A stretch of 64,000 nucleotides of DNA from Vicinamibacterales bacterium (GCA_965116765.1 OZ220718.1:3904848-3968847), one strand, 5' to 3'; shown: positions 7,931-61,436, numbered from the stretch's first letter. Program-made: numbers and translations. Notes: generated by a model from the sequence alone, not told the origin.

Positions 7931-8164
7931 CTGCTCGACGGGGTTTCGCCAACCAGCCGCGAGCTCGGGGGGCCCGTGCGCCCACGTCGCCCCGTGGCCG
8001 CGCCATGCGGGCGGCCGGGCGGGGAACGCCTCTCCGGTCCGCCGTCTCGACAGGCTTCGTTGCGAACCCCACCCCCACGCCTGAAGACGACCACCGGGCC
8101 GCGCGCGAATGCGCGATCCGGCTGGTCCGGCACGTCCGGCGGGAGCAGAAGACAGGGGACAGCG

Positions 8165-9721
8165 ATGAAGAAGCAGCTTCGATGGCGGATGCTGGCGGTG
8201 CTGGTCGTGGTGAGCGTCGCGGCGGGCGTGCTATGGCCCCCGGGTGAGACCATACGGCTCGGTCTGGACCTGCGCGGCGGGGTCCACCTCGTCCTGCGGG
8301 TCCACACCGACGAGGGTTTGCAGGTCGAGGCGGAAGTGGAGGCTCGGCGGCTGAGCGAGCGGGCCGGGCTCGACGGCATCGCGCTCGGATCGATCCGGGT
8401 CGCCTCGCCGACGGAGATCCTGGTCGACGGCGTGCCCCCCGACCGCGACGCCGAGCTCCGCCGCCTGGCCGACGACCAGCTCGCCGGCTACGACCGGGTC
8501 TCGGCCGCGGGCGGCACCCACCGCTATCGGCTGCGGGCGGACGTCGCGCAGGCCCGCCGGGACGAGACGGTCCGCCAGGCGCGCCTGACCATCGCACGCC
8601 GGGTCGAGGCGTTCGGGGTCACCGAGCCGGTCATCGCGCGGCACGGCGCCGCGGGCGACCAGATACTGGTCCAGTTGCCGGGGGTGGAGGACGTCGCGGG
8701 CGCGAAGGCGGTCATCCGCTCGACCGGGGTCCTCGAGCTCAACCTCATCGAGGCGGGGCCGGCGCCGTCCCGGGCCCGTCTCCTCGAGCCGACCCGGGGG
8801 GTGCCGCGATCCGGGCTCGAGGTCGTGCCGGGGGACGCCCCGACCGGCGACGGGCCCGACGTCTTCTACCTCGTGCCCCGGGCCGCGCCGATCTCCGGCC
8901 GCGATCTGCGACACGCCCGGGCGACGGTCGACGAGCTCAACCGGCCGGCCATCGGGTTCTCCCTGAACCGCGACGGCGCGCGGGCCTTCGCGGCCCTCAC
9001 CCGGGCGAACGTCGGCCGCGACCTCGCCATCGTCCTCGACGGCCGCGTGCAGTCGGTCGCCGTCATCGAGGAGCCGATCACCGGCGGCGAGGGGCGGATA
9101 CGCGGCGACTTCACCTCGCAGGAGGCGTCCGACCTCGCCCTGATCCTGCGGTCGGGGGCCCTGCCGGCCTCGCTCGACTACCTCGAGGAGCGCACCATCG
9201 GCGCGAGCCTGGGGGCCGACTCGATCCGCGCCGGGCTCGCCGCGTCGATGGCCGGCCTGATGGCGGTGGCCGTCTTCATGCTGCTCTACTACCGCGCCTC
9301 GGGCGTCAACGCGGTGGTGGCGGTGGCCCTCAACCTGCTGATCCTGCTCGCGGGCGTCGCCGCCGCCGGCGCCGAGCTGACGCTGCCGGGCATCGCCGGG
9401 CTGATTCTGACGATCGGCATCGGCGTCGATTCGAACGTCCTCATCTTCGAGCGCATCAAGGAAGAGCTGCCGACCGCCAAGGGGGCGCGGGCCGCCGTGG
9501 CGGCCGGGTTCGACCGGGTGTTCGTGACCATTCTCGACACGCACGTCGCGTCGCTGATCGCTGCCGCCTTCCTGTACCAGTTCGGGTCGGGGCCGATCCA
9601 GGGCTTCGCGACGACGCTGTTCTTCGGGCTGGTCTCGAACGTGTTCACGGCGGTGTTCGTGTCGCGCACGCTGTTCGGTCTCGTCCTGGCGCGGAAGCAG
9701 GGGTCGACCCTGAGCATCTGA
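8165..9721 (+). CDS. secD: protein translocase subunit SecD
   Basis: MKKQLRWRMLAVLVVVSVAAG, LGLDLRGGVHLVL, a periplasmic domain and six C-terminal TM segments (GIAGLILTIGIGVDSNVLIFERIKEE). Confidence 0.9.
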   Translation: MKKQLRWRMLAVLVVVSVAAGVLWPPGETIRLGLDLRGGVHLVLRVHTDEGLQVEAEVEARRLSERAGLDGIALGSIRVASPTEILVDGVPPDRDAELRRLADDQLAGYDRVSAAGGTHRYRLRADVAQARRDETVRQARLTIARRVEAFGVTEPVIARHGAAGDQILVQLPGVEDVAGAKAVIRSTGVLELNLIEAGPAPSRARLLEPTRGVPRSGLEVVPGDAPTGDGPDVFYLVPRAAPISGRDLRHARATVDELNRPAIGFSLNRDGARAFAALTRANVGRDLAIVLDGRVQSVAVIEEPITGGEGRIRGDFTSQEASDLALILRSGALPASLDYLEERTIGASLGADSIRAGLAASMAGLMAVAVFMLLYYRASGVNAVVAVALNLLILLAGVAAAGAELTLPGIAGLILTIGIGVDSNVLIFERIKEELPTAKGARAAVAAGFDRVFVTILDTHVASLIAAAFLYQFGSGPIQGFATTLFFGLVSNVFTAVFVSRTLFGLVLARKQGSTLSI

Positions 9722-9856
9722 CCCGTGGCGACGAAGAGGGAGCTCCGATGGTGACGTGACCTCGAACGCCCCGCGGCGCATGGGGCACGAAACCGCAAGT
9801 GGCGGCAAAGAGGAGCTTCTCGCGTGACGCGACCGCGCGGGCCGGCTCGTGGCCGG

Positions 9857-45142: not shown

Positions 45143-47905
45143 ATGAACTCCTGTCGACTGCTCGGCGCGGCGGCGCTCCTGCTTCTGCTCTCGCATCCGG
45201 GCGGCGCCCAACCGCTCGACGACGACGCAGGAGCGCCCGCCGGCTACCAACCGCTCGTCGAGGCGCTGGAGGCGGCGATGCTGTCCGGCGATCCCGGCGC
45301 CTACGCCGCCCTGGCGTCACCGGCCGCCGACCGCGACGCCACGGCGCAGTTCGCGCGAGAGCACGTGCGGCCCGGCGTCGACCGGGTCACCGCGACGCCC
45401 CGTTTCGAGACCCCGCTCGACGGCCGCGCCGAGGGCGACGGCTTTCGGGTGATGGTCGAGCTGTTCCTCGAGTCGGGCCCGCGCGGCCGGCTCGAGACCT
45501 GGCAGCTCGACGTGGTGCGGGAGGACGCGGGCCGGGGATGGCGCATCCTCGACCAGGACGCCGTCGACTCGATCGACAGCCTGCGCCACCTGCGCATCAC
45601 CCCCACCACGCAGTACGCCGCCGACGACCTGGTCGTCAGGGCCGAGGACCTGACCCTGACGCTCGCCGAGGGTTCCGCGTTCGTGGCGGAGACCGAGAAC
45701 GGGGTCACCGGCCTCGTTCTCCTCGGCGACGGGGTCATGCGCTTCGCGCCGCAGCCGGAGGCGGAGCGCGGGCAGGTGGAGATCTTCAGCGGACGCGAGG
45801 CGCTGGAGGCGGAGTTCGAGACGGCCTTCGTGCGGCTGCACCCCGACGCGTTCCGGTCCCGGGTGTCGACCGGCGCGTTGCGGGCGCGCGAGGTCGACCG
45901 GGGCACCCTGCGCGACGCCGAGGCGGTGCTCGACGAGTTCGTCGCGTTGTCGTTCACCCTCGACCTCTCGGACATCAGCGACCGCGTCTGGTCCCTCCCG
46001 CCGGGGCGCGGCGATCTTCTCGCCGAGATCCGCACCGAGGACCACGGCACCCTGACCTACATCCAGTCGGTCCGGCAGCCGGAAGACATCTCGCTGTTCG
46101 AGCGGGAAACCAACCGCATCATCTCGTTGTACCCGTCGGCCCGGAAGCGGGCGACCCGGGGACGCTACTTCGGGGACGACGACTCGGTGTCGCTCGACAT
46201 CCTCGACTACGAGATCAGCGCGTCGTTCGAGCCCCTGGGCTTCACCCAGCAGCGGCTGCGGGCGAGGCGCGAGTTCGTCGAGTGCCGCATCGTGGGCACC
46301 ACCCGCCTCGCGGCGCGGGTGAAGGGACTGCCGATCACGTCGTTCAGCCTGCGCCTGGCCGACGAGCTCGCGGTGCGCTCGGTCACCTCGAACGAGTTCG
46401 GCCCCCTGCTCTTCTTCCGGATGAACGGGCAGAACAACCTCGTGGTCAACCTGCCCGAGGAGGTCGGCGGCGGCACCGAGTTCACGGTGACGGTGACCTA
46501 CGAGGGCGATCTCGCGACGCAGGAGCTCGACGAGAACTGGATCGGGAGGCAGCGCGTCCTCCTCGAGCTCGAGCCGTTGTTCGGCCTCGGAGAGCCCCGC
46601 TACGTCTACAGCAACCGCAGCTACTGGTATCCGCAGTCGCTGGTCACCGACTACGCCACGGCGACCATCGATCTGTCGGTCCCGCCGGGGTGGGGCGTCG
46701 TGGCGAGCGGCGCCCCGGCCGGCACCAACCCGCCGCTGGCGGACGGCGGTGCGGACGGCGGGCCCCGCGAGTTCTCGTTCACGGCCCTCCAGCCCGCGCG
46801 CTACCTGTCGGCGGTCATCTCCAGGTTCGACGATCACCCCTCGCCGGTTCGGCAGGTCCGCCTCGACGACTCCGCGCCCCGGCCGGCGTCCGCGCAGGCC
46901 GAGGGGGGGGTCTTCTACGGCACCCTCGCGATCAGCGCCCACGGCACGCCGCGGAGCGCGGGCGACATCGACGAGACGGCCGAGCGCGCCGCGGACATCG
47001 CCGCCTTCTACGCGTCGGTCCTCGGAGACATCCCGTACCCGTCGATGGCGGTGGCCCTGACCGACAGCCGCCTGCCCGGCGGGCACAGCCCCGCCTACTT
47101 CGCCCTGATGAACCACGAGCTGCCCCGGCAGCCGGGCACCGTCGTCACCTGGCAGACCGATCCGGCGGTCTTCACCGGCTTCCCGCCCTTCTTTCTCGCC
47201 CACGAGATCGCGCACCAGTGGTGGGGACAGGCGGTCGGCTGGAAGAACTACCACGAGCAGTGGCTGAGCGAGGGGCTGGCGCAGTACTTCGCGGCCCTCT
47301 ACGCCGAGCACGACGAGGGGCCGGAGGTCTTCCAGGACATCATCGAGCGGATGCGGAGCTGGGCGATGCGGCACTCCGACGAGGGGCCGGTCTATCTCGG
47401 CTACCGCCTCGGCCACCTCGAGCGCGAGCCGCGGATCTTCCGGGCCCTGGTCTACAACAAGGGCGCGATGGTGCTGCACATGCTGCGCCGGCTGGTGGGA
47501 GACGACGCCTTCTTCGCGGGGCTGCGCCGCTTCTACCACGAGTGGCGCTTCCGGAAGGCGGGCACCGACGCGCTGCAGCTGGCGTTCGAGATCGAGGCGG
47601 GGCGATCGCTGAGCCGTTTCTTCGACCGGTGGATCCACGAGGCGGCCCTGCCGGACGTGCGGTTCTCGTCGCGTACCGAGAGGACGGGGAGCGGCGAAGA
47701 GGTGGTGCTGCGTTTCGAGCAGCGGAGCGAGCGGCTCTTCGAGCTGCCGGTCACCGTGACGGTGCAGTACCGGTCGGGCGAGGAGCAATCGGTGGTGGTT
47801 CCCGTGAGCGAGCGCGTGACCGAGCACCGCTTGCCGGCGCGGGGTCGCGTGCGCCGCGTGTCGGTGAACCGCGACCGCATGGCGCTGGCGAACATCGACC
47901 AGTAG
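45143..47905 (+). CDS. M1-family zinc metallopeptidase (aminopeptidase N-like), secreted
   Basis: A signal peptide is present. HEIAHQWWG...WLSEGLAQYF is the HEXXH-18-E motif. Confidence 0.9.
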   Translation: MNSCRLLGAAALLLLLSHPGGAQPLDDDAGAPAGYQPLVEALEAAMLSGDPGAYAALASPAADRDATAQFAREHVRPGVDRVTATPRFETPLDGRAEGDGFRVMVELFLESGPRGRLETWQLDVVREDAGRGWRILDQDAVDSIDSLRHLRITPTTQYAADDLVVRAEDLTLTLAEGSAFVAETENGVTGLVLLGDGVMRFAPQPEAERGQVEIFSGREALEAEFETAFVRLHPDAFRSRVSTGALRAREVDRGTLRDAEAVLDEFVALSFTLDLSDISDRVWSLPPGRGDLLAEIRTEDHGTLTYIQSVRQPEDISLFERETNRIISLYPSARKRATRGRYFGDDDSVSLDILDYEISASFEPLGFTQQRLRARREFVECRIVGTTRLAARVKGLPITSFSLRLADELAVRSVTSNEFGPLLFFRMNGQNNLVVNLPEEVGGGTEFTVTVTYEGDLATQELDENWIGRQRVLLELEPLFGLGEPRYVYSNRSYWYPQSLVTDYATATIDLSVPPGWGVVASGAPAGTNPPLADGGADGGPREFSFTALQPARYLSAVISRFDDHPSPVRQVRLDDSAPRPASAQAEGGVFYGTLAISAHGTPRSAGDIDETAERAADIAAFYASVLGDIPYPSMAVALTDSRLPGGHSPAYFALMNHELPRQPGTVVTWQTDPAVFTGFPPFFLAHEIAHQWWGQAVGWKNYHEQWLSEGLAQYFAALYAEHDEGPEVFQDIIERMRSWAMRHSDEGPVYLGYRLGHLEREPRIFRALVYNKGAMVLHMLRRLVGDDAFFAGLRRFYHEWRFRKAGTDALQLAFEIEAGRSLSRFFDRWIHEAALPDVRFSSRTERTGSGEEVVLRFEQRSERLFELPVTVTVQYRSGEEQSVVVPVSERVTEHRLPARGRVRRVSVNRDRMALANIDQ

Positions 47906-47958
47906 GCGGCCTGCGCGGCTCCGAGGCGCCGCCCGGCCACGCGAGGCGCGGACGCCGG

Positions 47959-48058
47959 GTCAGGGGGCCGCGCCGCGGAGCCCGCGGCCCCCTCGAGGGC
48001 TGGCTGCGCGCCCCGGCGGAGCCGTCGGGGCGACGATGGGCGGGCGGGGTCGCTCGCG
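47959..48058 (+). repeat. copy of the dispersed structured repeat, with a 10-bp GC hairpin (47963-47992) that could also act as the peptidase terminator
   Basis: GGGGGCCGCG-10 nt-CGCGGCCCCC, then ...GCGCGCCCCGGCGGAGCCGTCGGGGCGACGATGGGCGGGCGGGG. Confidence 0.6.
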
Positions 48059-48164
48059 CCCCGATCGACGGACGCCGGACCGGGGCGGTTTCCGGCCGGG
48101 CGACCGGCCGCGCCGTCCACGGCGATATGATTACGGTGCGCCCCCGGGCGCATGGGAGGCAACC

Positions 48165-49931
48165 TTGAGCTCGACAACCTCGTTCCGCGGCTGGACCGGG
48201 CCCGTGCTGACGCTGATTCTCTCGGGGCTGGCGACGTCCGGCCTCGCCCAGCCGCCCCAGGTGCTGATAGACCCGGTCGCCGAGACCGATGCGGTCCACC
48301 CGGACAGCACGGCCCGGGTGGGCCTCGACATCGCCCTCGACCCGGGCTATCACGTCAACTCCGACGCGCCCCTGGACGATCTCCTGATTCCGACGGTGCT
48401 GAGGCTCGATCCGCCCGAGGGGTTCACCCTCGAGGGGGTGGCCTTCCCCGAGGCGATCCTGCTCGAGCAGGTCGGCGTGGACGAACCCCTCGCGGTGTTC
48501 GAGGAAGAGTTCACGATCGGGGCGGCGTTGCGCGTCGACGCGTCCGTGGCCCCCGGCGCCTACACGGTGCCCGGCACGCTGCGCTACCAGGCGTGCAACG
48601 ACCGGATGTGCTTCAACCCCGTGAACGCCTCCGTCGACTTCGCGGTGGAGGTGGCGCCGGACAGCCGGCCGCTGACGACGGTGCGGCCGGACCTGTTCGC
48701 CGGCCTGACCATGGCCGACCCCGGCGGCGACGCGCCGGCGACGCCGCCGGCGGCGCCCGCCCCGGTCCTCGACGACCTGTCGGTGATGGCCGACCTCGAG
48801 GACTTCGAGGTGCTCGGCAGCACCGGGGGGTACCTCGGCACCGAGGCGTTCCTCGATTTCATGGCGGCCTCGGAGTCGGGCGAGGGCGAGCGCGGCTGGT
48901 TCGAGGGCCGCGGGCCGCTGGCGATCCTGCTGCTGATACTCGTCGGCGGCCTCGCCCTGAACCTGACCCCCTGCGTGCTGCCGATGATCCCCATCAACCT
49001 CGCCATCATCGGCGCCGGCGCCAGGGCCGGCTCGCGCCTGCGGGGATTCGCCCTCGGCGGCGCCTACGGCGCGGCGATGGCCCTCGTCTACGGGGGCCTC
49101 GGCCTCGCCGTCATCCTGACCGCCGGGTCGTTCGGCACCATCAACTCGTCGCCGTGGTTCAACGTCGGGATCGCGGCCCTCTTCGTCGTCCTCGGGCTCG
49201 CGATGTTCGACGTCCTCGCCATCGACTTCTCGCGGCTGCAGTCGCGGTTCGCGGGCGGGGGCAACCGGGCCGGGTCGTTCCTGGTCGCGTTCGGCATGGG
49301 CGCGGTCGCCGCCCTGCTCGCGGGCGCGTGCGTGGCGCCGGTGGTCATCCAGGTCATCGTGTTCTCGAGCAACCTCTACGGCACCGGCACCACCATCGCC
49401 CTCGCGCTGCCGTTCGTCCTCGGCATCGGCATGGCCCTGCCGTGGCCCGTCGCGGGGGCGGGGCTCTCGTGGATGCCGAAGCCGGGGGCCTGGATGGTCC
49501 ACGTCAAGCACGCCTTCGGCGTGTTCATCCTCGGCACCGCGGTGTACTACGGCTACGTCGGCTACGGGTTGTTCGCGCAGCGCTGGGTCGACCCCGACGA
49601 GGTCGCGAGCAGCGTCCAGGCGCTGCTGGAGGAGGGCTGGCATGCCTCGCTCGGCCAGGGGCTGGCCACGGCGAAGGCCGAGGACAAGCTGGTGCTCGTC
49701 GACATGTGGGCCACGTGGTGCAAGAACTGCCTCACCATGGACCGCACCACCCTCAAGGCCCCGGAGGTCGAGGCCGGGCTCGAGGACTACGTGAAGGTGA
49801 AGTTCCAGGCGGAGGATCTCGACGCCTCGCCCGCCGGGGACGTGCTGAGGCACCTCGACGGCATCGGCCTGCCCACGTACGCGATTCTGCGGCCCCGGCC
49901 TGACGCCCGGACCGCCGATGCCGGCGACTAG
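48165..49931 (+). CDS. dsbD: DsbD-like thiol:disulfide interchange protein (N-terminal domain, CcdA-type membrane core, C-terminal thioredoxin)
   Basis: GGGAGG lies 6 nt before TTG 48165. YQACNDRMCF, LTPCVLPMIP and WATWCKNC are present. Confidence 0.8.
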   Translation: MSSTTSFRGWTGPVLTLILSGLATSGLAQPPQVLIDPVAETDAVHPDSTARVGLDIALDPGYHVNSDAPLDDLLIPTVLRLDPPEGFTLEGVAFPEAILLEQVGVDEPLAVFEEEFTIGAALRVDASVAPGAYTVPGTLRYQACNDRMCFNPVNASVDFAVEVAPDSRPLTTVRPDLFAGLTMADPGGDAPATPPAAPAPVLDDLSVMADLEDFEVLGSTGGYLGTEAFLDFMAASESGEGERGWFEGRGPLAILLLILVGGLALNLTPCVLPMIPINLAIIGAGARAGSRLRGFALGGAYGAAMALVYGGLGLAVILTAGSFGTINSSPWFNVGIAALFVVLGLAMFDVLAIDFSRLQSRFAGGGNRAGSFLVAFGMGAVAALLAGACVAPVVIQVIVFSSNLYGTGTTIALALPFVLGIGMALPWPVAGAGLSWMPKPGAWMVHVKHAFGVFILGTAVYYGYVGYGLFAQRWVDPDEVASSVQALLEEGWHASLGQGLATAKAEDKLVLVDMWATWCKNCLTMDRTTLKAPEVEAGLEDYVKVKFQAEDLDASPAGDVLRHLDGIGLPTYAILRPRPDARTADAGD

Positions 49932-50012
49932 GGGTCTGCGCCGTAGAACGGTGCAGATTCCTGGCAGGGTTGGTTGGGCGCCCAGCGGAGCCGCAGGCGA
50001 CGATGGGCGGGC
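49931..50012 (+). repeat. copy of the dispersed structured repeat
   Basis: GGGGTCTGCGCCGTAGAACGGTGCAGATTCCTGGCAGGGTTGGTTGGGCGCCCAGCGGAGCCGCAGGCGACGATGGGCGGGC begins at the dsbD stop codon. Confidence 0.75.
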
Positions 50013-50032
50013 TAGCGAGAAGGGACAGGACC

Positions 50033-50434
50033 GTGATTGAACGCCTTCGGAGCCTGCTGCTCGTCGCGGTCCCGGTGCTGGCGGCGTGCGCCATGCAGCC
50101 GGGCGAGGTCAACCTCGTGAGCTCCTTCGGGGAGCAGATCGCGGCGGTCGACGGTGTCACCGACTTCGAGCACGACGGCGACGAGATCACCTTCATGGGC
50201 CCGGACGGCCGGGACGGGATCGCCGCGTGGCGGATACGGATCGAGTCGACCGAGCTGGTCGAGAACGACGGGCGGCCGCTCGAGGGTCACGTGGTGTCGT
50301 CCTGGTATCGGGACGGAGAGCTGGTCGAGATGATGGGCTCGATGTACACGCTCCCCGAGGCGTTCTTCGACACGGGCCTCGCGCAGGAGTGCTACGCGCT
50401 CTGGGACGAGGCGTCGAACGCCTGGGACTGGTAG
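50033..50434 (+). CDS. small lipoprotein, hypothetical
   Basis: GTG 50033. The lipobox is LLLVAVPVLAAC. The earlier part of track ORF 49970..50434 is encoded by the repeat element. Confidence 0.55.
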   Translation: MIERLRSLLLVAVPVLAACAMQPGEVNLVSSFGEQIAAVDGVTDFEHDGDEITFMGPDGRDGIAAWRIRIESTELVENDGRPLEGHVVSSWYRDGELVEMMGSMYTLPEAFFDTGLAQECYALWDEASNAWDW

Positions 50435-50455
50435 CCGGCCCGCCGCGACCGCGGA

Positions 50456-51358
50456 TCATCCGCCGGCGGCCGCCGGCACCCTGACCCGCAGCGCCTTCGG
50501 ATGGACCGCGGCGGACAGCGTGCGTCCGCCCTGCACCGCTTCTCCGTCGACGTGGAACCGGAGCGGCCGGTCCGCGGAGATCGTCACCTCGCCGACCCGT
50601 GAGCAGTGCACGTAGGGGTGGCGGTCGACGGTGCCGTTGAAGAGGCGCCAGAGGCCCCGGACGGCCCGCGCGCGGCCGATCGGGTCGACCGACACGAGGT
50701 CGAGCAGGCCGTCGTCGAGCCGGGCGCGCGGCGCGATCACCGCCCCGTTGCCGTACTGCCGGCCGTTGGCCACCTCGATCAACAGGGCCCTCCGCTCGAC
50801 CGCGCGCCCCTCGATCGCGAGGGTGTACCGCTGGCTCCGGTAGCTGACCAGCCGGCGCGCCGTGGCCAGGGCGTAGCCGGCCAGTCCGCGGCCGGCCAGG
50901 CCGGCGAACAGGTCGGCCACCGATGCGGGCAGCCCCACCCCGGCGAGGTTCACGAAGGGTCGGCCGGCCAGCTCCCCCACGTCGATGACGCGGTCGCGGC
51001 CGCGCAACGCGGTGTCGATCGCCTCCTCGGGCCGGAGGCTGATGCCGAGCTCGCGCGCCAGGCCGTTGCCCGAGCCCGCCGGCACGATGCCCAGCACCGC
51101 GTCCCGGCGCATCAGGGCCGAGGCCACCTCGTTGACGGTGCCGTCCCCTCCCCAGGCGACCACCGGGGAGAAGCCGCGTCCCGCGAGGGCCGCCGCGAGC
51201 TCGCGGCCGTGGCCCCGCCGCTCCGTGAAGGCCACCTCGTGGTCGGCGCCGGCGGCGGCGCAGCGCCGTCGGATCGCGTCGACGAGATCGGCCGGCCCGC
51301 TCCGGCGCGCCGACGATCCCGCAACCGGATTGATGATGAACGCAAGCCGAGACCGCAC
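50456..51358 (-). CDS. diacylglycerol/lipid kinase (YegS/BmrU family)
   Basis: RLAFIINPVAGSS...VVAWGGDGTVNEVASAL...IVPAGSGNGLAREL. The start is assigned to the GTG just before the conserved N-terminus and is uncertain. Confidence 0.8.
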   Translation of the reverse strand: MRSRLAFIINPVAGSSARRSGPADLVDAIRRRCAAAGADHEVAFTERRGHGRELAAALAGRGFSPVVAWGGDGTVNEVASALMRRDAVLGIVPAGSGNGLARELGISLRPEEAIDTALRGRDRVIDVGELAGRPFVNLAGVGLPASVADLFAGLAGRGLAGYALATARRLVSYRSQRYTLAIEGRAVERRALLIEVANGRQYGNGAVIAPRARLDDGLLDLVSVDPIGRARAVRGLWRLFNGTVDRHPYVHCSRVGEVTISADRPLRFHVDGEAVQGGRTLSAAVHPKALRVRVPAAAGG

Positions 51359-51474
51359 CGTCAGAGCCTGTTCCGCGCCGACCCCGCCGGCACGGCGAGC
51401 GAAGGACCGCCGGCCGTGGCGTGCGGCGATGCGCACGACTCGCGCGCCAACGGTGGTATAGTAGCCTCCCAATT

Positions 51475-52812
51475 ATGGGGAGCCGCTGGGTTCGCACCGT
51501 CGTCGTCATCGTAGCACTCGCGACGCTGGGTTTCGCGGGTAACCAGATCCGCCTCTTGAACGCCGCCCTCGCCGACGAGCAGGGCGGAGAGCGGGTCTTC
51601 ACCGACCTCGGCTGGACGCTCAAGCTCACGCTCGCCGAGCTGAGGAGCGCCCAGCAGGCCTATGTCGCGGACGGACAGGACCGCGAGTACTGGGCCTCCC
51701 GGGTCGAGACTCATCTCCAGGCGGTCCTCGGCAGCCTCGACAACCTCAAGCGCCAGGTCTCGAACCCGGACACCCTCGCGGCCCTCGACGACGCGGTCGC
51801 GGCGGTCGGCGACATCCGGGACCTGGATGAAGACGCCCGCGAGTACATCGGCTCCGATCAACCGCTGCAGGCATCGGACCTGATCTTCACCCAGGGGTTC
51901 GATCTGGTCGATCGCGCCCACGCGCACGTGCAGGCGGCCCAGCAGGAAGAGCGCACGTCGCGTCTCGACCTGATGAGCACCGCACGGGCGAACCAGTCGC
52001 GGATGATGTGGACGGCCGTGGCCGTCATCATCCTGTCGATGCTCGTGCTCGCGCCGGCGGGCGCCTCCTCGGACCGGGACGATCCGTCGCCCGACGACGG
52101 CGAGTACCACGTCCCCGAGACCAACGGACTGTCGCTGTTGTCGCTCGACGGCGACTCGGGCGACGACGAGCTCGATCTGCCGCCGGTCGACCGCGGGGAC
52201 CCGGCGGCGGCGCCCGCCTCCCCGGCGGCCGGCGCCGGCGAGGAACCGGCGCGGAAGCCGTCCGCACCGGCGGCGGCGCCGGATCTCGCGGCCACCGCGG
52301 CGCTGTGCACGGATTTCAGCAACCTGACGACCCGGGACCAGCTGCCCGGCCTGCTGGCGCGGACCGCGGCGCTGATGAACGCCAGCGGCATCATCATCTG
52401 GGTCAGCAACGAGAACGCGCGGGCGCTGCAGCCCGCCCTCGGGCACGGATACGCCCAGGGGACCCTGGAGCGCATCGGCTCGATTCCGCACGTCGGGACC
52501 AACCCGACGTCCGCCGCGTTCACGAGCAGGCGCATTCAGGTCGTCGAATCGGAAGGGTCGGACGGGGGCGCCCTGGCCGCGCCGCTGATGGTGTCGGAGC
52601 GGTGCATCGGCGTGCTCTCGGCCGAGCTGCGCGAGGGTTGGGAGTCGAGCGACGCGGTTCAGGCGACCGCCTCGATCGTCGCTGCACAGCTGGCGCCGCT
52701 GCTGCCTGCCGACGCCGCGGCGGCGGAACCGGTCGCCGCCTCCGCCACCGGCACCCACGACACGAGCGGTTCCGCCACGGGGACGGAGACCGTCAAGCCG
52801 GCGTCGTCCTGA
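51475..52812 (+). CDS. membrane protein with a periplasmic helical region and a C-terminal GAF-like domain
   Basis: TATAGT lies 13 nt before ATG 51475. Two TM helices are present. The C-terminal GIIIWVSNENARALQPALGHGY...LMVSERCIGVLSAEL is GAF-like. Confidence 0.65.
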   Translation: MGSRWVRTVVVIVALATLGFAGNQIRLLNAALADEQGGERVFTDLGWTLKLTLAELRSAQQAYVADGQDREYWASRVETHLQAVLGSLDNLKRQVSNPDTLAALDDAVAAVGDIRDLDEDAREYIGSDQPLQASDLIFTQGFDLVDRAHAHVQAAQQEERTSRLDLMSTARANQSRMMWTAVAVIILSMLVLAPAGASSDRDDPSPDDGEYHVPETNGLSLLSLDGDSGDDELDLPPVDRGDPAAAPASPAAGAGEEPARKPSAPAAAPDLAATAALCTDFSNLTTRDQLPGLLARTAALMNASGIIIWVSNENARALQPALGHGYAQGTLERIGSIPHVGTNPTSAAFTSRRIQVVESEGSDGGALAAPLMVSERCIGVLSAELREGWESSDAVQATASIVAAQLAPLLPADAAAAEPVAASATGTHDTSGSATGTETVKPASS

Positions 52813-52824
52813 CGCGACGCCCCG

Positions 52825-53277
52825 ATGGAGCCGTTGAGCCTGCCGCTCGACTACGCCGCCATCGAGCGGATTCTTCCCCATCGCTATCCGTTCCTCCTCG
52901 TCGATCGCATCACCGAGTTCGAGGTCGACAAGCGCATCGTCGGCATCAAGAACGTCTCCCTGAACGAACGCTACCTCACGCGCCGGCCCCGCGAGCGCCC
53001 GGTGCTGCCGCCGACCATCCTGACCGAGGCGGTCGCCCAGGTGGGCGCCATCCTGATACTCTCGAAGCCGGAGAACCGCGAGAAGCTCATCTACATCGTC
53101 GGTATCGAGCGGGTGCGTTATCGCCACCCGGCCCGTCCCGGCGACGTCGTCCACATCGAGGTCAACGTGAAGCGCCTGCGCAGCCGCATGGGCCAGCTGC
53201 ACGGCATCGCGAAGACCGACGACGGCAGGATCGCGCTCGACGGCCGCATGACCTTCGCCCTCGGCCCCGCGCAGTGA
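52825..53277 (+). CDS. fabZ: 3-hydroxyacyl-ACP dehydratase FabZ
   Basis: ILPHRYPFLLVDRITEFE...GIKNVSLNE...PPTILTEAVAQVG. Confidence 0.9.
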   Translation: MEPLSLPLDYAAIERILPHRYPFLLVDRITEFEVDKRIVGIKNVSLNERYLTRRPRERPVLPPTILTEAVAQVGAILILSKPENREKLIYIVGIERVRYRHPARPGDVVHIEVNVKRLRSRMGQLHGIAKTDDGRIALDGRMTFALGPAQ

Positions 53278-53307
53278 CGGCGCATCTCCTTCTGATAGAA
53301 TGCGCCA

Positions 53308-53961
53308 ATGGCTTCCAAGCAACGTCGCAAGCTGCCCAGGCAGCGACCTCCGGCCCCTCCTCCGGCCGAGCCCCGCTCGAGCGGCGGGCGGTGGGGGCTG
53401 ATCGCTCTCGCCGTCGTCGCGGTCGCCGGCGCCGGGGCACTCCTGCTGTTGGGGGGTGACCGGACCGCGGTGGCCCCCGAGCAGGCCGGCGAGGCGTCGA
53501 CGGCCCCTGCGTCCTCCACCGCGACGGCCGGGACCGCCGCCAGACCGGCGTCGGCGGCCCCGCAGTTCGACAGCGAGGACCTCGAGGGACTGCCGATGCC
53601 GCCGCTCCCCTACGTACCGCAGACCGCCGGCCCCGCCGACCTGATGAGGCAGGCCTACGTGTTCGCGGCCCGGAACCCGGACGTGCTCGATTACGTGCCC
53701 TGCTATTGCGGCTGCGGCCAGACCGACGGGCACGTGGGGAACACGGACTGTTTCGTCGAGTCGCGGGCCCCGAACGGGGCCGTGACCGAGTGGGACATCC
53801 ACGGCATGACCTGATCGCACTGCCTTGCTGTCGCGCGTGACGCGATGCAGATGCATGCCCTCGGCGCCTCGCCCTCGGACATCCAGGACGCGGTCATGAA
53901 CAAGTACGCGTCCCAGTCGGCCTATGCCACGCCGACGCCGCCCGCGCCGCGCGGCAACTGA
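53308..53961 (+). CDS. PCYCGC-motif membrane-anchored protein with an in-frame TGA at 53812-53814 (Sec candidate, or a disrupted gene)
   Basis: Track ORF 53308..53814 ends ...YVPCYCGCGQTDGHVGNTDCFVE...EWDIHGMT*. The same frame continues as SHCLAVARDAMQMHALGASPSDIQDAVMNKYASQSAYATPTPPAPRGN*, with GC-rich third positions. Confidence 0.65.
53825..53850 (+). promoter_or_regulatory. candidate bacterial SECIS-like hairpin
   Basis: The stem UUG(C)UGUCGCG / CGCGAUGCAG has a CGUGA loop and begins 10-11 nt after the UGA. Confidence 0.35.
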
Positions 53962-54035
53962 AGAAGACGTGGCTGCCCGGGTACGTCGGCGGTCCGAGTG
54001 ACCCGTGCCCGGGGAGCCCGCCGTGACCATCCCGA

Positions 54036-55562
54036 ATGGGTCCGCGCGGTTCCCCACCCCCGCCGGCGGAGCTGCTCGCCGGGCTGTACGAGTCCATCCC
54101 CGAGGGCATCTACGTCGGCGCCCTCGAAGCCGCCGGCGTCGAGACGCTGGGCGCCAACCCGCACCTGAAGCTCATGTTCGGGTTCGACCCGGACGAGCCC
54201 GACGACCGGGTGCGGCCGTTCGAGGCCGAACGGTTCCTCGACGACCGGGCCCGCGCCGACTTCATCGCGCGGCTGCGCCGCGACGGCGCCGTCACCAACT
54301 ACCTCGTCCGTCTCCGGCGGGTCGACGGCAGCTCGATGTGGGTCGAGGTCACCGCCGCCCTGCGCGCGGGGGAAGGCTCGCGCCCGCCGCGCCTCGACGC
54401 TCTCGTGCGCGACGTCAGCGAGCGGCGGAAGCTCGAGGCGCAGGGGCGCGACCCGGGTCACGAGCTGGTGCAGTCGGAGAAGATGGCGGCCCTCGGCCAG
54501 ACCATCTCGGGCGTGGCCCACGAGCTCAACAACCCGCTGGCGACCATCCTGACGTGCGCCGAACGACTGGCCGCGCGCCCCGTCGAACCCGAGACGAAGC
54601 GCGGCGTCGAGACCATTCTCGGCGAGGCCGAGCGGGCGGCCAAGATCGTGCGCAACCTGCTGACGTTCGCCCGCAAGCGCAACACCACGCGAGCGTTCGT
54701 CGACATGAACGAGATCGTGCACGACACGCTGGCCTCGCGCGCCTACGAGCAGCGGGTGTCGAACATCTCGACCCTCGACGCCCTCGCCGCCGGGCTGCCC
54801 CCCATCTTCTCCGACCCCCACCAGGTGAAGCAGGTGCTGCTGAACCTGGTCATCAACGCCGAGCACGCGATGCTCGCCGCCAACGGCCGCGGGTCGCTCG
54901 TCGCCCGAAGCTGGTACGACGAGGCCCGGGACATGGTCACGCTGGAGATCAACGACGACGGGCCGGGGATTCCGGAGGAGGTCCGGAACCGGATCTTCGA
55001 TCCCTTCTTCACCACCAAGGCGGTCGGCAAGGGCACCGGGCTCGGGCTGACCGTGGCCTACGCCATCGTTCAGGAGCACGGCGGGCGGATTCGGGTGGAC
55101 TCGACGCCCGGCGCCGGCGCGTCGTTCTTCGTGTCGTTTCCCGCCCGCGCGGGGTTGTCCCGCGCGGCCCCGGCGCCGACCCTTCCCGCGCCCACCGCCG
55201 GCGCCAGCATCCTGCTCGTGGAGGACGAGCCGGCCCTCGCGGCGGCGGTGGCCGACTCGCTGGGCGACGCCGGCTACCGCGTGGAACGCGCCGCCGACGG
55301 CGAAGAGGCGCTCGCGCGGGTCGAGGCCCGGCCCTTCGACCTCGTCATCTGCGACCTCAAGATGCCGCGGCTCGACGGTCGCGCGTTCTACCGGTGGCTG
55401 TGCGAGGAGAATCCGTCGCTCGCCCGCCGCATGATCTTCGTCACCGGCGACGTGGCGGGCACCGACGCCGAGCGCTTTCTCGTCGAGAGCGGATGCCGAT
55501 GGCTGGCCAAGCCGTTCCGGCTCCGCGACCTGCTCCGCATGGCCAACGAGGTGATGAGGTAG
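54036..55562 (+). CDS. hybrid sensor histidine kinase (PAS-HisKA-HATPase-REC)
   Basis: SEKMAALGQTISGVAHELNNPLATI is the H-box. NDDGPGIP and GKGTGLGL are the N and G boxes. ILLVEDEPAL...DLVICDLKMPRLDG is the receiver domain. Confidence 0.9.
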   Translation: MGPRGSPPPPAELLAGLYESIPEGIYVGALEAAGVETLGANPHLKLMFGFDPDEPDDRVRPFEAERFLDDRARADFIARLRRDGAVTNYLVRLRRVDGSSMWVEVTAALRAGEGSRPPRLDALVRDVSERRKLEAQGRDPGHELVQSEKMAALGQTISGVAHELNNPLATILTCAERLAARPVEPETKRGVETILGEAERAAKIVRNLLTFARKRNTTRAFVDMNEIVHDTLASRAYEQRVSNISTLDALAAGLPPIFSDPHQVKQVLLNLVINAEHAMLAANGRGSLVARSWYDEARDMVTLEINDDGPGIPEEVRNRIFDPFFTTKAVGKGTGLGLTVAYAIVQEHGGRIRVDSTPGAGASFFVSFPARAGLSRAAPAPTLPAPTAGASILLVEDEPALAAAVADSLGDAGYRVERAADGEEALARVEARPFDLVICDLKMPRLDGRAFYRWLCEENPSLARRMIFVTGDVAGTDAERFLVESGCRWLAKPFRLRDLLRMANEVMR

Positions 55563-55672
55563 ACGTCTGCGACATCGCGCGGCGCGGGCGGGAGGGTCGG
55601 TTCGGCGGCGAGCGGAGCCGGGACTCCGCTCGCCGGGCCGGGAATCGGCGCGCCCGGGGGACGGGCGGGAGG

Positions 55673-56527
55673 TCACGCGGCGTTCGACCTGGGGGCGGCG
55701 GCGACGCGCGATGGGGCCGCTTCCGCGACCGCGGGCACGCGGGCCTTCGCCATGTTCAGGCGGCGGCGGCCCGCCGGTCCCCCGCCGGTCGTCGTCGCGG
55801 CCATCGCCCTCGGATCGAGGTCCGGACCCAGCTCCTTGCGGAGCCGCTGCACCGCGCGGGCGTGCAGTTGCGACACGCGGGACTCGTTGACCCCGATCTC
55901 GCTGCCGATCTCCTTCATCGTCACGTCGCCGTAGTAGTAGAGCCCGATGACCTTCCGCTCGCGGGCCGGCAGCGACTTGATGGCATCGCGCACCCGCCTG
56001 GCGACGTCGCCCTGCTCGCACACGCGATCGGGTCTCGGCTGCTCCGCCGGCATCATGACCGGAGGCAGGTTGGCGCTCTGCCCGGGGTCGACGGAGGCGA
56101 GGGGCGACGTCGATTCGATCGCCTTGATGCGGACGATGGTCCGGCTCAGCGCCGCCTCGTCGTATCCCATGTGCTGCGCGAGGTTCGCCAGCGACGGCTC
56201 GTCTCCGAGCTCGTGGCGCAGCTTCTCGCGGGCCGCCTCGAGCTCGCGCCTGACCTTGCGGACCCCGCGGGGCCACGCGTCGCGGCGCAGGGCGTCGATC
56301 ATCGCGCCGCGGACACGGCGCTCCGCGAAGGTCTCGAACTTGATGCCGCGCCCCTCGTCGAACCGGTGGGCCGCGTCGATGAGCCCGATCATGCCGTCCT
56401 GCACGAGGTCGCCGAGGTCTATCGAGTGCGGCATGGAAGCCGCCATGCGCCGGGCCATCGCCTCCACGAACGGCACGCCCGCGGCGATGCGGTCGTGACC
56501 CTTGCCGTCGGTTGCTTGCGCCTTCAT
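55673..56527 (-). CDS. FliA/WhiG-type (group 3) RNA polymerase sigma factor with an Ala/Pro-rich tail
   Basis: GGAGG lies 8 nt before ATG 56527. DLVQDGMIGLIDAAHRFDEGRGIKFETFAERRVRGAMIDALR is region 2. LPARERKVIGLYYYGDVTMKEIGSEIGVNESRVSQLHARAV is region 4. Confidence 0.85.
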   Translation of the reverse strand: MKAQATDGKGHDRIAAGVPFVEAMARRMAASMPHSIDLGDLVQDGMIGLIDAAHRFDEGRGIKFETFAERRVRGAMIDALRRDAWPRGVRKVRRELEAAREKLRHELGDEPSLANLAQHMGYDEAALSRTIVRIKAIESTSPLASVDPGQSANLPPVMMPAEQPRPDRVCEQGDVARRVRDAIKSLPARERKVIGLYYYGDVTMKEIGSEIGVNESRVSQLHARAVQRLRKELGPDLDPRAMAATTTGGGPAGRRRLNMAKARVPAVAEAAPSRVAAAPRSNAA

Positions 56528-56608
56528 GATGGTCGCCTCCAGGACATCGGTCAACCGCGGCGCGCTGCCTGCCGGAGAGAGACAGCCGCCGCGCATGGAG
56601 ACGATTAA

Positions 56609-59621: not shown

Positions 59622-60902
59622 TCATGCCTTCGCCCACGGAAAGCTCGCCGTTCGCAACCCAAGGCGCGTGAGCCCGTAGTCGGACCAGAGCCGCATGGCC
59701 GGGAATCGCACCTCCTTCCCGGTCCGCACCTGGTGCTTGCGACAGAGCCATTGGCGCAGCCGCCGGGTCGCGTGCCGGTCGACCGCCTCGTAGGCCGGGC
59801 TGACCTGCCCCAGGGTGAAGTAGTTCGCCCATCCCGTCAACAGACGGTTCAGGCGCGCCACCACAACGCCCGGCGGCAGGTGCCCACTACGCGGCGTCGT
59901 CAGTTCGCTCACGCGGCGGCAGATGCTCTGGACGCTCGCCGAGCTCGGGCGCGTGCCGATGTAGGCGGCTCCCGTGGTCGGTCGATAGTTGCGCCCAATC
60001 CGGTAGCCGAGGAACGTCATCGGTTCCTCCGGCACCCGGCAGCAGCGGGTCTTCTCGGCGTTCATCGGCAGCTTCAGTCGCTTCATCAGTCCCTCGACTG
60101 CCGCCAGCATCATCGATGCCGGCGCTCGGCCGAGCACCGCGAAGTCGTCCGCATAGTTGACGATTTCCGCTCCGAAGCACCGGGCGTACCCCAGCACCTT
60201 CCAGCCCCGGATGAAGCGACGCATGTAGACGTTGCTGAACAGCGGCGAAATCGGCGCCCCTTGCGGGGTACCCTTCCGCTCGCGTCGCGCACGGTTCGTC
60301 CGGCGGCGTCCGCCCCGACCGTCGTCCTCCTCGACCGCCATCTCCAGCCACGCCTTGACCCACCCCAACAGCCGACCGTCGCTCACGCGACGGGCGACCG
60401 ATTTCAGCAGGTCCGCGTGCGGGATTTCGCCGAAGTAGTTCGTCAGGTCGGCGTCCACCACCTCCCGGTGCCCGGTGTTCAGCAGCCGGTGTACGCGTCT
60501 GACCGCGTCATTCGCGCTCCGGCCCGGCCGGTAGGCGTATTGCTCCGGTTCCAGGTCCGCTTCGAAAATCGGCGACAACACCAGCATCGCCGCCGTCTGC
60601 GCCACCCGGTCCCGGAGACACGGTATGCCCAACGGCCGGAACTTCCCGCGCTGCTTCTTCGGGATGAGCACCTGCCGAACCGCACGCGGCCGGTAGGTCC
60701 CCTCCTTCAGGTCCCGCGCCAGTGCGCCCAACCACCCGTCCACCCCCTGCGATTCGACGTCCGCGACCGTCTCGCCGTCCACCCCGGCCGCGCCGCCGTT
60801 GCGGCGGACGGTCTGCCAGGCGACCGCAAGCACGTCGTCGCGCCACACCTTGTCGCTCAGCGAGTAGAACCGGAAGTCGGCGAGCTTCCTTCGCTTTCGC
60901 AT
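59622..60902 (-). CDS. group II intron reverse transcriptase/maturase (no endonuclease domain)
   Basis: GGAAGVDG, RPLGIPCLRDRVAQ, the YADD box (VNYADDFAVL), and the maturase X domain (LNRLLTGWANYF). Confidence 0.9.
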   Translation of the reverse strand: MRKRRKLADFRFYSLSDKVWRDDVLAVAWQTVRRNGGAAGVDGETVADVESQGVDGWLGALARDLKEGTYRPRAVRQVLIPKKQRGKFRPLGIPCLRDRVAQTAAMLVLSPIFEADLEPEQYAYRPGRSANDAVRRVHRLLNTGHREVVDADLTNYFGEIPHADLLKSVARRVSDGRLLGWVKAWLEMAVEEDDGRGGRRRTNRARRERKGTPQGAPISPLFSNVYMRRFIRGWKVLGYARCFGAEIVNYADDFAVLGRAPASMMLAAVEGLMKRLKLPMNAEKTRCCRVPEEPMTFLGYRIGRNYRPTTGAAYIGTRPSSASVQSICRRVSELTTPRSGHLPPGVVVARLNRLLTGWANYFTLGQVSPAYEAVDRHATRRLRQWLCRKHQVRTGKEVRFPAMRLWSDYGLTRLGLRTASFPWAKA

Positions 60903-61436
60903 GTAGCACCGTCTGGAGTCGCTGAACACGTTCTGAGGCTGCTAGGCCTTCGCCAGTCCCCACGTCCCTTCCTCCGTCATGCGCTGCTCTCGAACCGAGG
61001 CCCCTTCCCTCCACCGGCGTTACCCGGCTTCCCCGGTACTACAGGCCTCTCCGCCACCCTCGCCGGCCCAACCTGACCCTCGCGGGCTGTCGGTTGGCGC
61101 GTGCCACGCCACCGGCAGGGCTTCCCGTGTTGCGTCCATTCCCCTCTTCCATGCGTGCTGTCGCCAATACCCCGGCGGAAACGGTCGGTGCTCCCGTCGC
61201 TCGCTTCCCGACCGCTGGCAGCCTTCCCCGTGTGGCAGGCGGGTCGGCTTCCGCATCACAGGTTTCGGGGCCTGCTCGGCGTTCAGTCGCGTTACGGCCC
61301 GCATGGTCGCTGAACCGCCCACGGCGGCCCTTGTCGTCGGAGTGCTTCGGGCGATATCGTTGCCTCCATCGTCCGCTCCGATTGCTACCGGCTGGAGCGA
61401 CAGTTGCCGGGCGGGATTCGCACCCGCTGAGGAATG

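Follow-up and report, generated by a model that had tools for sequence, protein, structure and literature searches.

A predicted selenocysteine codon within a PCYCGC/CYCXC-family gene of Vicinamibacterales

Does a TGA codon in the middle of a long coding frame end the protein, or is it decoded, and if so, as which residue? The question is raised by an ORF in the window analysed here (the whole stretch of 64,000 nucleotides from a Vicinamibacterales bacterium), which starts with ATG at 53308 and runs to 53814, where it closes with ...EWDIHGMT and a TGA (53812-53814); the same frame then continues for 48 further codons, SHCLAVARDAMQMHALGASPSDIQDAVMNKYASQSAYATPTPPAPRGN, before a second TGA (53959-53961) closes it. 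The sequence-only reading had drawn attention to exactly this stop and its same-frame continuation, both of which are borne out by the sequence and its translation, and had proposed that the TGA occupies the first Cys position of a CxxC motif. Since long open frames are common in DNA of 72% GC, the continuation alone does not go beyond chance, and the answer has to come from homologues, from orthologous loci, and from the RNA that follows the TGA.

The reading frame and its homologues

The complete predicted selenoprotein gene spans 53308..53961 (+) and comprises 217 sense codons, including the UGA as putative selenocysteine (Sec) codon 169 (53812..53814, +), plus the terminal TGA at 53959..53961 (+), which is read from the sequence as the true stop. 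The fabZ-like gene upstream is likewise closed by TGA (53275-53277); UGA is thus a normal terminator in this genome where no SECIS element follows. A scan of the window for in-frame TGA codons with coding-like flanks (GC3 > 0.85, moderate GC2) returned only 53812 and 35453; the latter is taken as the junction of two adjacent genes in the same frame. The GC3-based in-frame TGA scan of 80 related loci gave no convincing second selenoprotein.

Homology extends across the TGA. When the frame is read through, the protein matches the PF13798 (PCYCGC) profile with 94.1 bits over positions 51-149 of 153, versus 54.8 bits over positions 51-107 for the truncated product, a gain of 39 bits; both the score, relative to the gathering threshold of 25 bits, and the PCYCGC motif at residues 131-136 place the protein in this family, and the extended coverage shows the 48 downstream codons to be the C-terminal third that the truncated domain lacks. 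In the protein database, about 100 homologues of 160-176 aa, with identities down to 44%, all end at the same HGMT or HGLT; a smaller set of 211-222 aa runs on past HGMT as ...THGMACIVCIDVARDAMQM.... The full-length homologues (P0087-P0111) read ..THGMACIVCIDVARDAMQ.. at this point, so that the TGA column of the window corresponds to the first Cys of a CxxC motif and the UGA occupies the first position of U-S-H-C (53812..53823), just as had been proposed. The family consensus that the sequence-only reading gave for the region after WD.HG.. was also essentially right, the Cys-type orthologues reading HGMACIVCIDVARDAMQ...SG.S..DIR.AV..KY....TPTP. One further database entry, the 288-aa protein P0039 (from a 299-kb ENA contig), passes in shifting frames through the 3' end of fabZ, the PCYCGC gene and the part after the TGA, with the correct C-terminus ...AVMNKYASQSAYATPTPPAPRGN; this suggests that indel errors in its assembly bypass the TGA by accident.

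The protein begins with a Lys/Arg/Pro-rich N-terminus (residues 1-27), followed by a transmembrane helix of the signal-anchor type at residues 28-50 (RWGLIALAVVAVAGAGALLLLGG; 53389..53457, +), which was read from the sequence and has no lipobox Cys; alignments A1-A3 show conservation of W29 and of the hydrophobic segment, and AF2 predicts a helix at 27-39 for the Cys-type orthologue P0093. A low-complexity linker rich in Ala, Ser, Thr and Pro, up to ~60 residues long, leads from residue ~51 to ~95, where the Cys/His domain begins (residues ~95-217). Within this domain, the PCYCGC motif (P131, C132, Y133, C134, G135, C136; 53698..53715, +) does not vary in alignments A1 and A2; the residues that are invariant in the protein include its three cysteines, C132, C134 and C136, along with C148, H142, H165, W162 and G166, to which U/C169 and C172 are added. 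In its AF2 model, the P0093 domain (pLDDT about 85-96) is mostly helical, with one β-hairpin; it has no significant fold relative in the PDB by Foldseek (best E 1.5), nor has the protein any significant sequence relative there. The weak matches to CopZ/HMA, CueR and CcmH are not evidence of a function. The literature gives the function of the PF13798 family as unknown (PMC13068155). To judge from the predicted sequence features, the Cys/Sec domain probably faces the periplasm, outside the cytoplasm; with low confidence, a putative extracytoplasmic role in selenol/thiol redox chemistry or in the binding of soft metals may be proposed for it.

The gene lies 30 nt downstream of a FabA/FabZ-like dehydratase gene (52825..53277, +; PF07977, 70 bits), which keeps this position in nearly all 80 loci, and upstream of a gene for a hybrid histidine kinase with PAS, HisKA, HATPase and receiver domains (54036..55562, +; assigned by Pfam, in conserved synteny). 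Also part of the conserved neighbourhood, 3.4 kb upstream and on the same strand, is a gene for a thiol:disulfide interchange protein of the DsbD type (DsbD_N, DsbD_TM and a thioredoxin-like domain; 48165..49931, +; assigned by Pfam and synteny), which could be a source of reducing power for the periplasm and a possible partner of the selenoprotein. The conserved order, at 45143..56596 in the window and in loci L001-L079, is peptidase M1, DsbD, a small ORF, DAG kinase (-), a GAF protein, FabZ, the Sec gene, the hybrid histidine kinase and a sigma factor (-); it is common to genomes with a Sec-type and with a Cys-type gene, the GAF protein being detectable only in the closest relatives. Further along the window, at 59622..61429 (-), lies a group II intron, recognized by an Rfam match to group-II-D1D4-4 (61287..61429, -; 93.6 bits); just downstream on the intron strand, an ORF at 59622..60929 (-) encodes a reverse transcriptase with a group II maturase domain (RVT_1, 110.9 bits; GIIM, 59.2 bits).

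Orthologous loci and the hairpin after the UGA

Whether relatives carry the same TGA, a check proposed together with the sequence-only reading, is answered by a set of 80 loci from a scan of species-representative genomes, nearly all of them MAGs of Vicinamibacterales/Acidobacteriota and many of them complete chromosomes of 5-7 Mb. The motif could be located in 78 loci, all from different species-level genomes, and the orthologous codon is TGA in 45 of these, TGC in 27 and TGT in 6; the 33 Cys-type orthologues (TGC or TGT) are single ORFs at the syntenic locus. At every TGA locus the frame past this codon is uninterrupted, and its translation follows x-x-C-L-x-[VI]-ARDAMQM...TPTP.... In a neighbour-joining tree of the domain, the TGA-type genes occupy three or more clades with Cys-type clades in between, and pairwise identity among TGA-type domains goes as low as 48%.

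Two positions close to the site differ between the types. Codon -1 (53809..53811) is always Thr in the Sec-type and mostly Ala in the Cys-type; codon +4 (53824..53826) is always Leu (CTN, with C13 and U14 invariant) in the Sec-type and mostly Ile in the Cys-type. The fixed CU at codon +4 may be part of the SECIS stem base, where U14 pairs with G/A39, rather than a constraint on the protein. Two of the loci sit on short MAG contigs with foreign labels, L012 (JAKZYK010000104.1, 'Gammaproteobacteria bacterium') and L025 (PBPL01000069.1, 'Deltaproteobacteria bacterium'); both have a Sec gene of the Vicinamibacterales type, an identical SECIS and the same downstream neighbours (histidine kinase and sigma factor), and the downstream peptide of L012 is identical to that of L002 and L009. 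Their labels are probably binning or taxonomy errors.

The RNA after the UGA can form the bulged hairpin with a CGUGA loop that had been claimed to start 10-11 nt past this codon, and its position and features are SECIS-like. The predicted bacterial SECIS hairpin occupies 53825..53850 (+), that is, +14..+39 counted from the T of the TGA, after a spacer of 10 nt. Its lower stem has 4 bp and is separated by a single bulged nucleotide (U18, or C17 in the alternative drawing) from an upper stem-loop at 53830..53846 (+), in which a 6-bp stem, GUCGCG/CGCGAU, carries the loop CGUGA (53836..53840); the predicted energy of +14..+39 is -11.0 kcal/mol. The consensus model for bacterial SECIS elements (bSECIS) of Zhang & Gladyshev 2005, as summarised in PMC13188914, describes an apical loop of 3-9 nt with a G in its first two positions, an upper stem of 4-16 bp, a distance of 16-37 nt from UGA to loop, and an MFE of -7.5 kcal/mol or lower. 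The hairpin agrees with the model on each point: the loop has 5 nt, with G at position 2 followed by U, the upper stem 6 bp, the distance from UGA to loop is 21 nt, and the MFE is below the limit. Searched against Rfam, the window and the segment 53780-53900 gave no SECIS or tRNA-Sec family, only noise.

As a fold of a single sequence, the hairpin is unremarkable for DNA of 72% GC (z = -1.0; 38 of 200 shuffles fold equally well). What sets it apart is its conservation in the TGA-type. The block +20..+38 (53831..53849, 19 nt, UCGCGCGUGACGCGAUGCA) is 100% invariant in 43 distinct TGA-type sequences, and codons +6..+10 are always GTC GCG CGT GAC GCG, with a synonymous diversity of 0.00; in 32 distinct Cys-type genes, the same Val-Ala-Arg-Asp-Ala codons have a synonymous diversity of 0.42-0.63. 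All other degenerate codons of the TGA-type, from -15 to +26, vary (synonymous diversity 0.06-0.71), so that the invariance of 5 of 5 degenerate third positions in the block gives a Fisher p of ~2e-6, the number of positions outside being approximated as 33. The Arg codon, a mixture of CGC and CGT in the Cys-type, is always CGT in the Sec-type, and this fixed choice places a U in the hairpin loop.

Covariation adds little to this. Only one substitution touches the upper stem: two sequences have A for G19, so that A·U takes the place of a G·U pair. The lower stem, which can pair in just 12-26 of 30 distinct sequences, is partly maintained. Shuffle and slide controls are unremarkable, except for the percentage of cells paired. 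Because the upper stem is invariant, covariation neither supports nor refutes the fold, and the evidence for the predicted SECIS is the TGA-specific freeze of synonymous sites, not fold energy or covariation. Elsewhere in the window, a 15-mer at 9818..9832 (+), TCTCGCGTGACGCGA, is one mismatch away from the SECIS core; it sits past the end of a long + strand ORF (7976..9721), beside another GC-rich inverted repeat, and an in-frame TGA at a suitable distance was not identified for it. With ~0.11 such matches expected by chance, it is regarded as a coincidence.

The decoding of the UGA

Our reading is that 53308..53961 is one gene, encoding a selenoprotein of 217 residues that belongs to the PCYCGC/CYCXC family (PF13798); we put its probability at about 0.88. 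Selenocysteine would be inserted at the UGA (53812) in the way usual for bacteria: the hairpin that begins 10 nt past it would act as a SECIS and recruit SelB-GTP-Sec-tRNA(Sec) to the ribosome, termination would be avoided, and translation would then continue until the regular stop, the TGA at 53959. The product would be anchored in the membrane by its N-terminus and carry, behind a flexible linker, a small domain, mostly helical and rich in Cys and His, in which Sec169 and Cys172 would form GMT-U-x-x-C beside the invariant C132/C134/C136/C148/H142/H165. Comparison of the orthologous sequences establishes a single homologous ORF, a syntenic Sec/Cys pair, purifying selection downstream of the TGA and a hairpin that is invariant in the TGA-type only; from these we infer that the decoded residue is Sec, i.e., that the genome carries selA, selB, selC and selD.

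The searches that could bear on this machinery covered the window and its orthologous loci. No match to E. coli SelA, SelB or SelD was obtained by tblastn (E <= 1e-3) in the window and in ±10 kb around the locus in 80 relatives, and ARAGORN found no tRNA-Sec in the 64-kb window and 38 TGA-type loci, nor a tRNA gene of any kind in the window; as both searches cover only ~1% of a genome, they are uninformative rather than negative. A 98-nt 'tRNA-Gly(ccc)' called by ARAGORN in L017 (18390..18487, +), Sec-like by its length, is likely a false positive, having no Rfam match and lying in GC-rich sequence. In the Acidobacteriota, Sec use has been described for Occallatibacter riparius (PMC12013277) and for [NiFeSe] hydrogenase variants (PMC13582414); we found no literature on Sec use specific to Vicinamibacterales.

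Among the alternatives, the one that survives best, itself unlikely, is that the UGA is read through without Sec, either by a near-cognate tRNA (for Cys, Trp or another residue), stimulated by the hairpin, or as a minor product beside a protein that mainly terminates at 168 aa. It draws on the fact that comparative data prove decoding, not the identity of the inserted residue, and on the putative status of the Sec machinery in the source genome; the combination of a UGA at the first Cys of a CxxC motif with a hairpin that agrees with the bSECIS model throughout is, however, the classic signature of Sec, and the homologous family is already catalogued among the UxxC selenoproteins. We know, moreover, of no established bacterial mechanism for a hairpin-dependent read-through of UGA without Sec, which we count against this alternative.

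Less probable still is a split gene, in which a 168-aa protein ends at the TGA and a separate 38-aa peptide starts from an ATG at 53845, 11 codons past it. Both ORFs do appear in the public gene calls, on three further contigs that encode the identical 168-aa product. The 10 codons between TGA and ATG are, however, conserved at the protein level, with the Cys at +3 invariant in TGA-type genes while its codon alternates between TGC and TGT, and the supposed start is a Met inside the conserved DAMQM motif; the Cys-type orthologues encode the two parts as single ORFs at the same locus, and both the Pfam and the NF041379 profiles are continuous across the junction. Weakest of all, with a probability close to nil, is the explanation as a nonsense pseudogene or as a base-call error of TGC/TGT with a decaying remnant behind it, for which it can be said that gene callers stop at the TGA and that the window yielded no Sec machinery, but against which stand a TGA at the same codon in 45 assemblies that are independent, come from different species and are too divergent to share one erroneous reference, and on the three further contigs with the identical 168-aa product; a downstream frame that is intact everywhere and is under the same selection (codons +1..+26 of the TGA-type without the hairpin: pS 0.517, pN 0.190, ratio 0.37) as the 30 codons upstream of the TGA (pS 0.488, pN 0.184, ratio 0.38); and a hairpin block invariant in TGA-type genes only. 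The conserved downstream coding frame thus rules out pseudogene, base-call error and split gene alike.

Known families and significance

The sequence-only reading had taken the family not to be a listed selenoprotein, which proved mistaken: two reviews and NCBIfam NF041379, 'CYCXC family (seleno)protein', list it, and its selenoprotein status rests on these three sources. A 2022 review has 'hypothetical protein OS_HP4', with UxxC (PMC9312934), and the selenoprotein list of PMC13188914 has CYCXC family protein / OS_HP4, with PF13798 and UxxC; in these lists, OS_HP4 is credited to Zhang & Gladyshev 2007 and to an Olavius symbiont metagenome (PMC13188914, PMC9312934), and a description of it is absent from the main text of the 2007 and 2008 papers. 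As the domain has one CxxC only, the UxxC listed for OS_HP4 should be the same site as U169.

The window protein shares with NF041379/OS_HP4 the PF13798 domain, the CYCxC motif and, in the C-terminal half, a UxxC/CxxC. It matches the NF041379 profile over positions 13-89 of 90; positions 14-89 align with its residues 112-200, and its HGMT-[U/C]-SHC fragment corresponds to positions 52-89. It scores 66.4 bits, however, and the Cys-type orthologues P0093 and P0097 score 62-63 bits, all short of the equivalog cutoff of 90 bits; it also differs in its length of 217 aa, with membrane anchor and linker, against a model of 90 positions, and in its origin from Vicinamibacterales (Acidobacteriota). The Vicinamibacterales proteins thus add a new clade to a known selenoprotein family, outside the NF041379 equivalog. 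That the clade is missed by NF041379 is the likely reason for its NCBI name, 'PCYCGC motif-containing (lipo)protein', and for its truncation.

More distant are the PF13798 'PCYCGC' lipoproteins of Firmicutes (e.g., Parageobacillus AOT13_14730), which have the same domain with extra conserved Cys and are extracytoplasmic (PMC13068155); they are Cys-only and have a lipobox, whereas the window protein has Sec, a signal-anchor helix and no lipobox Cys. HMA metallochaperones (CopZ/MerP, with GMTCxxC) and the 'UxxU metal-binding (seleno)protein' NF041115 contain the identical local motif GMT-[C/U]-x-x-C. Membership in an HMA/CopZ-type domain was considered and rejected: HMA/CopZ models match locally over ~20 residues with 12-20 bits against cutoffs of 85-95, Pfam HMA has no match in the window protein, the PDB sequence search gives E of about 1, and the predicted fold is mostly helical, not ferredoxin-like βαββαβ, so that the resemblance is one of motif only.

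On the side of the RNA, the hairpin resembles the E. coli fdhF SECIS, and the bSECIS model, in lying inside the coding region, in starting ~10-11 nt past the UGA, and in having a bulged nucleotide under the upper stem and a small apical loop whose positions 2-3 are G and U. The fdhF SECIS has the loop GGUC. Here the loop is CGUGA and the sequences of stem and loop are unrelated to those of fdhF; recognition by SelB is a prediction only.

For annotation, the consequence is a mis-annotated orthologous group that takes in no fewer than 45 species-level genomes and some 100 protein clusters. It is at present recorded as a 'PCYCGC motif-containing (lipo)protein' of 160-176 aa and an orphan ORF of 38 aa, where the correct product would be ~217 aa long and contain a UxxC motif with Sec; the repair needs a model that covers the clade, as NF041379 fails to reach it (66 bits against its cutoff of 90). 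The general understanding of recoding is unchanged: the result is an annotation fix and not a new kind of recoding, and will not surprise a specialist.

For the biology of the lineage, the finding implies Sec decoding in many Vicinamibacterales, an abundant soil lineage, and offers a clean natural experiment, with Sec-type and Cys-type orthologues at one syntenic locus and a SECIS frozen in the Sec-type only, a contrast that could be used to study Sec/Cys exchange and the recognition by SelB in this lineage. Taken jointly, the observations may describe a distinct subfamily of CYCXC proteins, membrane-anchored, facing the periplasm, outside NF041379 and truncated in every public record examined, in which Sec would be ancestral, the 19-nt SECIS would have been frozen across an order-level radiation (mostly soil and marine), and replacement by Cys would have occurred several times, making the gene a marker of an unrecognised, widespread Sec trait of Vicinamibacterales. 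We hold this joint reading tentatively, at slightly worse than even odds; if it is true, these genes would form a natural Sec/Cys series on the benefit of selenium to an extracytoplasmic CxxC protein.
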